A stretch of DNA of 64,000 nucleotides, taken from assembly GCF_003018255.1 (NCBI RefSeq), contig NZ_CP027440.1; one strand, given 5' to 3'. The notes under the pieces were generated by a model, which ran no database searches, was not told where the DNA came from, and saw only the letters and a program-made list of their open reading frames with translations. Positions 11,924 through 12,210 of the stretch are shown one piece after another; within the stretch, counting starts at the first letter, position 1, and each line of letters starts with the position of its first letter. The DNA comes from Escherichia coli. GTDB taxonomy: Bacteria > Pseudomonadota > Gammaproteobacteria > Enterobacterales > Enterobacteriaceae. The position numbers and the translations under genes are program-made.

Positions 11924-11956
11924 AAACCTGACATTTTGATTCAAAATGTCAGGTTT
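11924..11956. repeat. 33-bp perfect palindrome (16-bp arms, 1-bp spacer) at the left boundary of the candidate switch
   Basis: AAACCTGACATTTTGA T TCAAAATGTCAGGTTT read directly. Confidence 0.9.
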
Positions 11957-12210
11957 GGTTTAATTGCCTGAATATTTAATTTTCTTGGAATATAAATCTA
12001 ATTTGTTTGATTTTTATTGTTTTTAATTTTGTGTTATTTAACAGCGCGAGTGAAAACTGATCACTGGTATGACCTTTATGGTTAATCATTTCAAATCATG
12101 GGGTTATTTTACTTTAGCGAGAAATATCAACATGTTATGTGTTTTATTTAATTGAATGAGCTGTTTTTTTATGGAAGAATTGAGGCAAACGTAGGAATCT
12201 GACATTTTGA
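11941..12210. promoter_or_regulatory. candidate invertible DNA switch (phase-variation element) flanked by 12-bp inverted repeats
   Basis: TCAAAATGTCAG at 11941-11952 and its exact reverse complement CTGACATTTTGA at 12199-12210 bracket a ~246-bp AT-rich segment lying between a FimB/E-type recombinase gene and a LuxR regulator gene. Confidence 0.6.

Follow-up and report, generated by a model that had tools for sequence, protein, structure and literature searches.

Three phase switches operated by Fim-family recombinases have been characterised in extraintestinal pathogenic Escherichia coli, and hyxS is one of them. Experiments in the strains UTI89 and CFT073 have demonstrated that hyxS is inverted by FimX, and only by FimX (PMC6083910, PMC6458436, both citing Bateman & Seed 2012), and that the expression of hyxR depends on the orientation of hyxS has been described as well (PMC6083910, PMC3789825). 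The inverted repeats of hyxS have been published as being 16 bp in length (PMC6083910), and the gene context, ykgH-hyxB-hyxA-hyxR-ipbA-betA, represents the pathogenicity island PAI-X, in which upaB is a synonym of hyxB (PMC3789825).

The closest described relatives of this system are comparable with it to different extents. The fimS switch, which is operated by FimB and FimE and is also acted on by FimX (PMC6083910, PMC6458436), resembles hyxS in that its recombinase is a Fim-family tyrosine invertase and in that the recombinase gene, the invertible promoter and the target gene are co-directional. However, it is a 314-bp element with repeats of 9 bp (PMC11294581, PMC6083910), and its repeat aligns poorly with that of hyxS (PMC6458436), which, unlike fimS, is flipped by FimX alone (PMC6083910, PMC6458436). 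The ipuS switch (IpuA/IpuB), which controls ipuR-upaE, is similar to hyxS in that its invertible promoter precedes the genes of a LuxR-type regulator and an autotransporter, in its size of 260 bp, in a promoter matching at 4/6 positions per hexamer and in half-sites of partial similarity (PMC6083910). It differs in having 7-bp repeats and four recombinases able to flip it, and also in the position of its distal repeat, which lies within the coding sequence of ipuA so that inversion truncates IpuA (PMC6083910), whereas both repeats of hyxS are intergenic. In the switch of the Salmonella T1 antigen, the recombinase, STM0716, is 72% identical to FimX, but the downstream genes make a glycan, not an autotransporter.

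The window analysed here, which is a stretch of 64,000 nucleotides of E. coli DNA (NZ_CP027440.1), contains a locus that was recognised in a sequence-only reading as a candidate invertible switch. Over positions 11000-13000, the window showed 100% identity with the chromosomes of several E. coli strains in RefSeq that are annotated for hyxR and ipbA, in which the regulator is named "LuxR family transcriptional regulator HyxR" and the recombinase "tyrosine-type DNA invertase IpbA", with a note giving HbiF and FimX as its other names. The gene order, which is ykgH, hyxB (upaB), hyxA, hyxR, the switch, ipbA (fimX, hbiF) and betA, is the same in UTI89 and CFT073. In both of these strains, the 16-bp repeats are identical to those of the window, and the 246-bp interior, in the same orientation, is 93.5% (UTI89) and 92.7% (CFT073) identical. 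Based on the shared gene order, the identical repeats, the interior identity and the agreement with the published repeat length, the element is therefore the published hyxS switch, which has been known and characterised since 2012. Synteny, repeats, interior length and recombinase family are all shared with hyxS of UTI89 and CFT073, and the differences are only allelic, consisting of an interior divergence of about 6-7% and the allele of FimX (WP_001362381.1 in the window and WP_001295805.1 in UTI89 and CFT073). Thus, fimX-hyxR, which the sequence-only reading had named as an analogue of the locus, turned out from the RefSeq annotation on identical DNA to be that very system. The locus is present in about 1,900 of the 5,426 complete E. 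coli genomes.

The individual genes were also examined (Table 1). IpbA scored 250.8 bits on the NCBIfam model NF007370 ("tyrosine-type DNA invertase"), for which the cut-off is 221, and its R-H-R-Y catalytic set is intact (R40, H135, R138 and Y170), which bears out the proposed gene for a tyrosine recombinase of the FimB/FimE type. The proposal of a LuxR-family regulator was similarly borne out by a GerE/LuxR helix-turn-helix at residues 135-181 of HyxR (E = 3.9e-6), for which no NCBIfam model was found. For HyxA, neither a Pfam nor an NCBIfam domain was found; it has been reported to play a part in determining O-antigen chain length and in serum resistance (PMC3789825). The hyxB start annotated in relatives is located a few codons inside the window ORF. 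A scan of the hyxR-hyxA and hyxA-hyxB gaps indicated no terminator-like site, and the terminator-like hairpin behind hyxB is likely to be the end of the hyxRAB transcription unit, which fits the "hyxRAB operon" named in the literature (PMC11294581, PMC12922286). The earlier suggestion of an operon that is headed by the regulator gene and ends in an autotransporter gene was hence correct as to the hyxR-hyxA-hyxB arrangement, as judged by the RefSeq annotation, TIGR01414 and the terminator scan. In the strain MDR_56, the DNA of which does not differ from that of the window between 11000 and 13000, RefSeq designates hyxB and betA (3861-6147 and 9949-11642 of the retrieved locus) as frameshifted pseudogenes; in the window, the frames of hyxB (Table 1) and betA (13953-15686) are open.

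Table 1. Coordinates of the hyxS switch and its associated genes in the window.
Feature	Position	Strand	Remarks
hyxB (= upaB), autotransporter adhesin gene	7855..10179	-	Open frame intact; TIGR01414 beta-barrel, 233 bits; RefSeq name
Terminator-like hairpin, 15 pairs	7752..7784	-	Just 3' of hyxB
hyxA, 253 aa	10188..10949	-	ORF and RefSeq annotation
hyxR, LuxR-family regulator, first switch-controlled gene	11103..11897	-	RefSeq annotation on identical DNA
hyxR-proximal recombination site	11924..11956	.	16+1+16 dyad in the state of the window
Left repeat arm, TGATTCAAAATGTCAG	11937..11952	+	Strand exchange inside the arm; flipped GPEC1035 equals the in-silico flip
Invertible interior of hyxS, 246 bp	11953..12198	.	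Both orientations in genomes; checked per locus
Predicted switch promoter	12152..12180	+	-35 TTGAAT, 17-nt spacer ending in TGG, -10 AAGAAT; points away from hyxR
Right repeat arm (CTGACATTTTGAATCA on the + strand)	12199..12214	-	Part of the fimX-proximal site 12199-12223
ipbA (= fimX = hbiF), Fim-family tyrosine DNA invertase, 187 aa	12227..12790	-	NF007370 and RefSeq annotation

The boundaries of the element were defined by its repeats. The 12-mer TCAAAATGTCAG had been reported at three places, which are 11941-11952, 11928-11939 and, in reverse-complemented form, 12199-12210. It is present at all of them and its inverted match is exact, but it is only a part of the perfect inverted repeat, the true length of which is 16 bp (TGATTCAAAATGTCAG pairing with CTGACATTTTGAATCA). 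The "33-bp perfect palindrome" described for 11924-11956 does have symmetric arms, but it is a 16+1+16 dyad, the central T of which, at 11940, is unpaired. Within this hyxR-proximal site, the half-sites CTGACAT and ATGTCAG flank an 11-bp centre (11928-11952), and this dyad layout has been conserved in the switches of the paralogous cassette and of Salmonella. In the fimX-proximal site, the inner half-site and the core are kept, and the outer half-site is degenerate yet conserved across the families. All three families, which are hyxS, a third cassette described below and Salmonella T1, have the segment TGATTCAAA of the repeat in common. This segment spans the centre of the dyad and, if the 9-bp core of fimS is taken as a guide, is likely to be the crossover region. 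The central base is the sole asymmetric position of the left dyad and pairs with the right site only in the inverted alignment, which would favour inversion over deletion.

The interior between the repeats has a G+C content of 27.6%, compared with 51% for the window, and its 246 bp enclose no complete ORF of more than 37 aa, in agreement with the AT-rich, ORF-free segment of about 246 bp that had been noticed. The 16-mer, when up to two mismatches were allowed, was found three times in the 64-kb window, with all of the occurrences being at this locus, against an expectation of 0.03, and a count of three was reached in 0 of 100 shuffles. Furthermore, this pair was the only perfect inverted pair of 16-mers within 500 nt in the whole window. 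A scan of species-representative genomes for the inner 10-mer at a spacing of 240-270 nt gave 23 matches, all in unrelated taxa and none beside this system; the E. coli species-representative genome is evidently without PAI-X, and the inner 10-mers made a poor probe, since it is the outer portion of the repeat, TGATTCAAA, that hyxS and the Salmonella switch have in common. No Rfam family was found above threshold. Sub-threshold matches to IS102 RNA (25.8 bits, window positions 12806-12944, minus strand) and to RAGATH-13 (21.6 bits, 12010-12100, minus strand), both of which were well below the gathering scores, are most likely due to chance.

The orientation of the element in natural genomes was determined by the use of a 551-nt junction query in two forms, one being native and the other having 11953-12198 reverse-complemented, with matches counted at a coverage of at least 80%. 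Among the 5,426 complete E. coli genomes, the native orientation was found in 1,780 and the flipped one in 15, and the junctions in the alignments fall exactly at the repeat. A comparison of homologous loci for both orientations, which had been put forward as a check of the candidate switch, thus gave both of them, with breakpoints inside the repeat. The query flipped in silico is matched at every base (551 of 551) by the strain GPEC1035, the HyxR and IpbA proteins of which are the same as in strains of the native orientation, which indicates that the exchange occurred inside the 16-bp repeat and that the event was recent. The proposal of a recombinase-driven invertible switch is therefore supported by this orientation polymorphism, together with the published inversion by FimX (PMC6083910, PMC6458436). 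Five of the flipped genomes share a query identity of 97.3%, and their sources are wastewater, manure, human and chicken.

Seven complete genomes were found to have a fimX of which IS66 has left no more than the final 37 codons. The switch is flipped in six of these genomes and native in MEI2A-0323. Over 3.4 kb, the inversion of the interior (locus positions 1255-1500) and one SNP are all that separates the near-clonal Bern isolates MEI005 and MEI2A-0323. In MEI005 (NZ_CP071259.1, retrieved locus 11950-23620), this locus is a second copy of ykgH-hyxB-hyxA-hyxR-hyxS, which is located beside yqgA in an island at tRNA-Phe (pheV) and in which an insertion of IS66 (ISEc8-like) has left the 37 C-terminal codons of fimX. 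The canonical PAI-X of MEI005, at 3.92 Mb, is in the native orientation and has an intact ipbA (44932-45495 of the retrieved locus), the protein of which is that of UTI89. The flip of the recombinase-less copy is explained by FimX acting in trans, and there is accordingly no conflict with the literature; it lends indirect support to the inversion by FimX that has been published from experiments. Flipping of hyxS without FimX, which the MEI2A-0323/MEI005 pair could have suggested, was rejected because the truncated locus is a second copy and an intact ipbA is present at the canonical site. In four genomes with IS66-truncated fimX (RM14721, QDFD216, D53-1 and Eco_24-2013), the flipped junction query was found at one place only, which suggests that they have no intact fimX and that their switch may be locked in its flipped, presumably ON, state. 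The IS66-fimX junction is common to the seven complete genomes, several of which are from dogs, and the stretch concerned in RM14721 (NZ_CP027105.1) lies at positions 5138-5541 of its retrieved locus.

Regarding the promoter, no candidate was found in the switch by a stringent sigma-70 scan. A permissive scan gave many weak candidates in the AT-rich interior, including several equally weak ones that face hyxR in the orientation of the window, and the candidates could be told apart only by cross-species conservation. The predicted promoter on the plus strand, with the hexamers TTGAAT (12152-12157) and AAGAAT (12175-12180) and an extended -10 (TGn), matches at 4/6 positions per hexamer, and a motif of such a loose form turns up somewhere in 8.8% of the interiors after shuffling. 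A comparison of hyxS, the paralogous cassette and Salmonella T1 showed that all three have the motif TTGnnn-N17(TGn)-nAnnAT on the same strand, at 34, 34 and 36 nt from the core, respectively, and that it points to the recombinase gene in all of the assemblies compared. Inversion would move the predicted promoter to the minus strand (11999-11971) and place its start site near 11964, so that about 67 nt of leader would precede the ATG of hyxR at 11897. The global alignment of the Salmonella interior gave a score of 133, compared with 114 ± 10 for the null, which is a difference of about 2 SD and near saturation, so that the orientation is not settled by the alignment alone.

The state of hyxS in the window was judged from this conserved direction of the motif in combination with known states. 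CFT073 strains from which all recombinases had been deleted have been described as "hyxS locked OFF" (PMC6083910), and the reference assemblies of UTI89 and CFT073 have the same orientation as the window. In the Salmonella T1 switch, the predominant state in GenBank, which is that of nearly all assemblies, has been found by experiments to be OFF (PMC11294581), and a single orientation was found at the four places that we retrieved. These indirect lines of evidence together suggest, with good though not full confidence, that the window represents the OFF state of hyxS.

The opposite assignment, in which hyxS is shown ON in the window, the real promoter is one of the weak minus-strand candidates and the orientation of the majority of assemblies is ON, draws on the several minus-strand candidates with 8/12 matches in the AT-rich interior. 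We consider it unlikely, because conservation in the three switch families was seen for the plus-strand candidate but for none of those on the minus strand, and because the ON assignment disagrees with the recombinase-null CFT073 with hyxS locked OFF (PMC6083910), the CFT073 reference being in the orientation of the window, and with the homologous Salmonella switch, which is OFF in nearly all GenBank assemblies (PMC11294581). It is also opposed by the finding that inversion at hyxR set transiently phage-resistant clones of Mt1B1 apart from the reference (PMC12361893).

Two further explanations deny that the segment inverts at all or that the repeats are the targets of the recombinase, and both are highly improbable. 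The repeats could be a static feature, such as an operator dyad or a terminator or attenuator hairpin 5' of hyxR, for which the 16+1+16 dyad of the left site and its being flagged as terminator-like on the plus strand might be taken as signs; however, there is no T-run after the hairpin on the hyxR-sense strand, inversion has been published from experiments (PMC6083910, PMC6458436), and the presence of the interior in both orientations among complete genomes, with breakpoints exactly at the repeat, already refutes a static regulatory repeat. A MITE-like non-autonomous element inserted between fimX and hyxR, the ends of which would be the repeats, would look much the same, with inverted repeats at the ends of a short, AT-rich segment that is free of ORFs, but no dispersed copies with target-site duplications, which would speak for it, were seen, and the repeat has no other copy in the 64-kb window. 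The segment instead occupies a constant position in about 1,900 E. coli genomes and is always accompanied by the recombinase and regulator genes, even after the move of the cassette to the pheV island, and the repeat core is conserved beside orthologous recombinases in Salmonella and in the paralogous cassette, all of which argue against a MITE.

The comparison with the relatives of hyxS was extended to sequence details. The Salmonella T1 switch, which is bounded by TGATTCAAAA and has an interior of 269 bp, exactly as published (PMC11294581), shares with hyxS the core TGATTCAAA(A), the position and strand of the promoter-like motif and the occurrence of its assemblies overwhelmingly in one state. 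It differs from hyxS in the length of the interior and in the perfect repeat, which is 10 bp in most isolates, and the first ORF downstream of it has no similarity to HyxR. Although most copies of this switch (4578-4866 of the retrieved loci) have the 10-bp repeat, one variant has a perfect 16-bp repeat, TGATTCAAAAAGTTAA, owing to SNPs at the inner ends. The third paralogous cassette (retrieved loci about 5001-10300), which adjoins acetolactate synthase and decarboxylase genes and is apparently uncharacterised, has a recombinase 81% identical to FimX, 18-bp switch repeats (TGGTTCAAAATGTCAGAT), a HyxR-like protein with 51% identity, a HyxA-like protein with 45% identity and an autotransporter. 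It is labelled by NCBI as E. coli, and no megablast match to it was found in the 5,426 complete E. coli genomes. Two forms of its switch were seen, one with 200 bp and the other with 241 bp between the repeats; they are set apart by an indel of 41 bp at the end nearest to the regulator gene, and this indel does not affect the conserved promoter block. Taken together, all of the features that could be tested place the element of the window in the hyxS family, and it works in the manner of fimS, ipuS and the Salmonella T1 switch.

The overall reading, that the element is the hyxS switch and is inverted by FimX, has in our estimation a probability of about 95%, with the catalysis by FimX and the orientation-dependent expression of hyxR being adopted from the literature; the OFF state of the window and the position of the promoter are inferred and less certain. 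In the mechanism that we propose, IpbA/FimX would bind the two recombination sites and pair them in inverted alignment, and strand exchange inside the 16-bp repeat, putatively at the family core TGATTCAAA, would reverse the 246-bp interior. The interior would carry one outward-facing promoter, which in the orientation of the window would face the 3' end of fimX and leave hyxR OFF. When flipped, the promoter would face hyxR across a 5' UTR of about 67 nt and drive hyxR and probably also hyxA and hyxB/upaB. The outcome would be a reversible ON/OFF heterogeneity of a LuxR-type regulator and a surface adhesin. As for the strand that fimX and hyxR share, a scan of the interval between them indicated no terminator, with a simple scan flagging the left dyad as terminator-like on the plus strand. 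Because the two genes are co-directional with no terminator between them, hyxR could be expressed to some extent by read-through whichever way the switch is turned.

A broader joint reading is that the OFF-state promoter is directed antisense into the 3' end of fimX, that fimX reads through to hyxR, that the orientation feeds back on the expression of the recombinase and that the switch belongs to a wider family. Convergent transcription would allow the orientation to feed back on fimX expression, which would be the counterpart of the control of fimE at fimS, where orientational control is known. We regard this joint reading as tentative and rather doubtful.

The recognition of hyxS from sequence alone adds no new biology, the element having been known since 2012, and the present analysis makes modest additions, which are the census of orientation in 5,426 genomes, the argument from conservation for the promoter and the OFF state, and the natural copies of the cassette without a working recombinase. 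The switch itself is of physiological relevance, as it controls HyxR, which is involved in the tolerance of nitrosative stress and survival in macrophages, and the UpaB adhesin, as HyxA and HyxR affect O-antigen chain length and serum resistance, and as its inversion has been observed in transiently phage-resistant clones (PMC6083910, PMC3789825, PMC12361893). The ideas of feedback and of a wider family are incremental; if they are true, the conserved promoter and the TGATTCAAA core in PAI-X, Salmonella T1 and the third cassette would define a wider family of switches than has been described.
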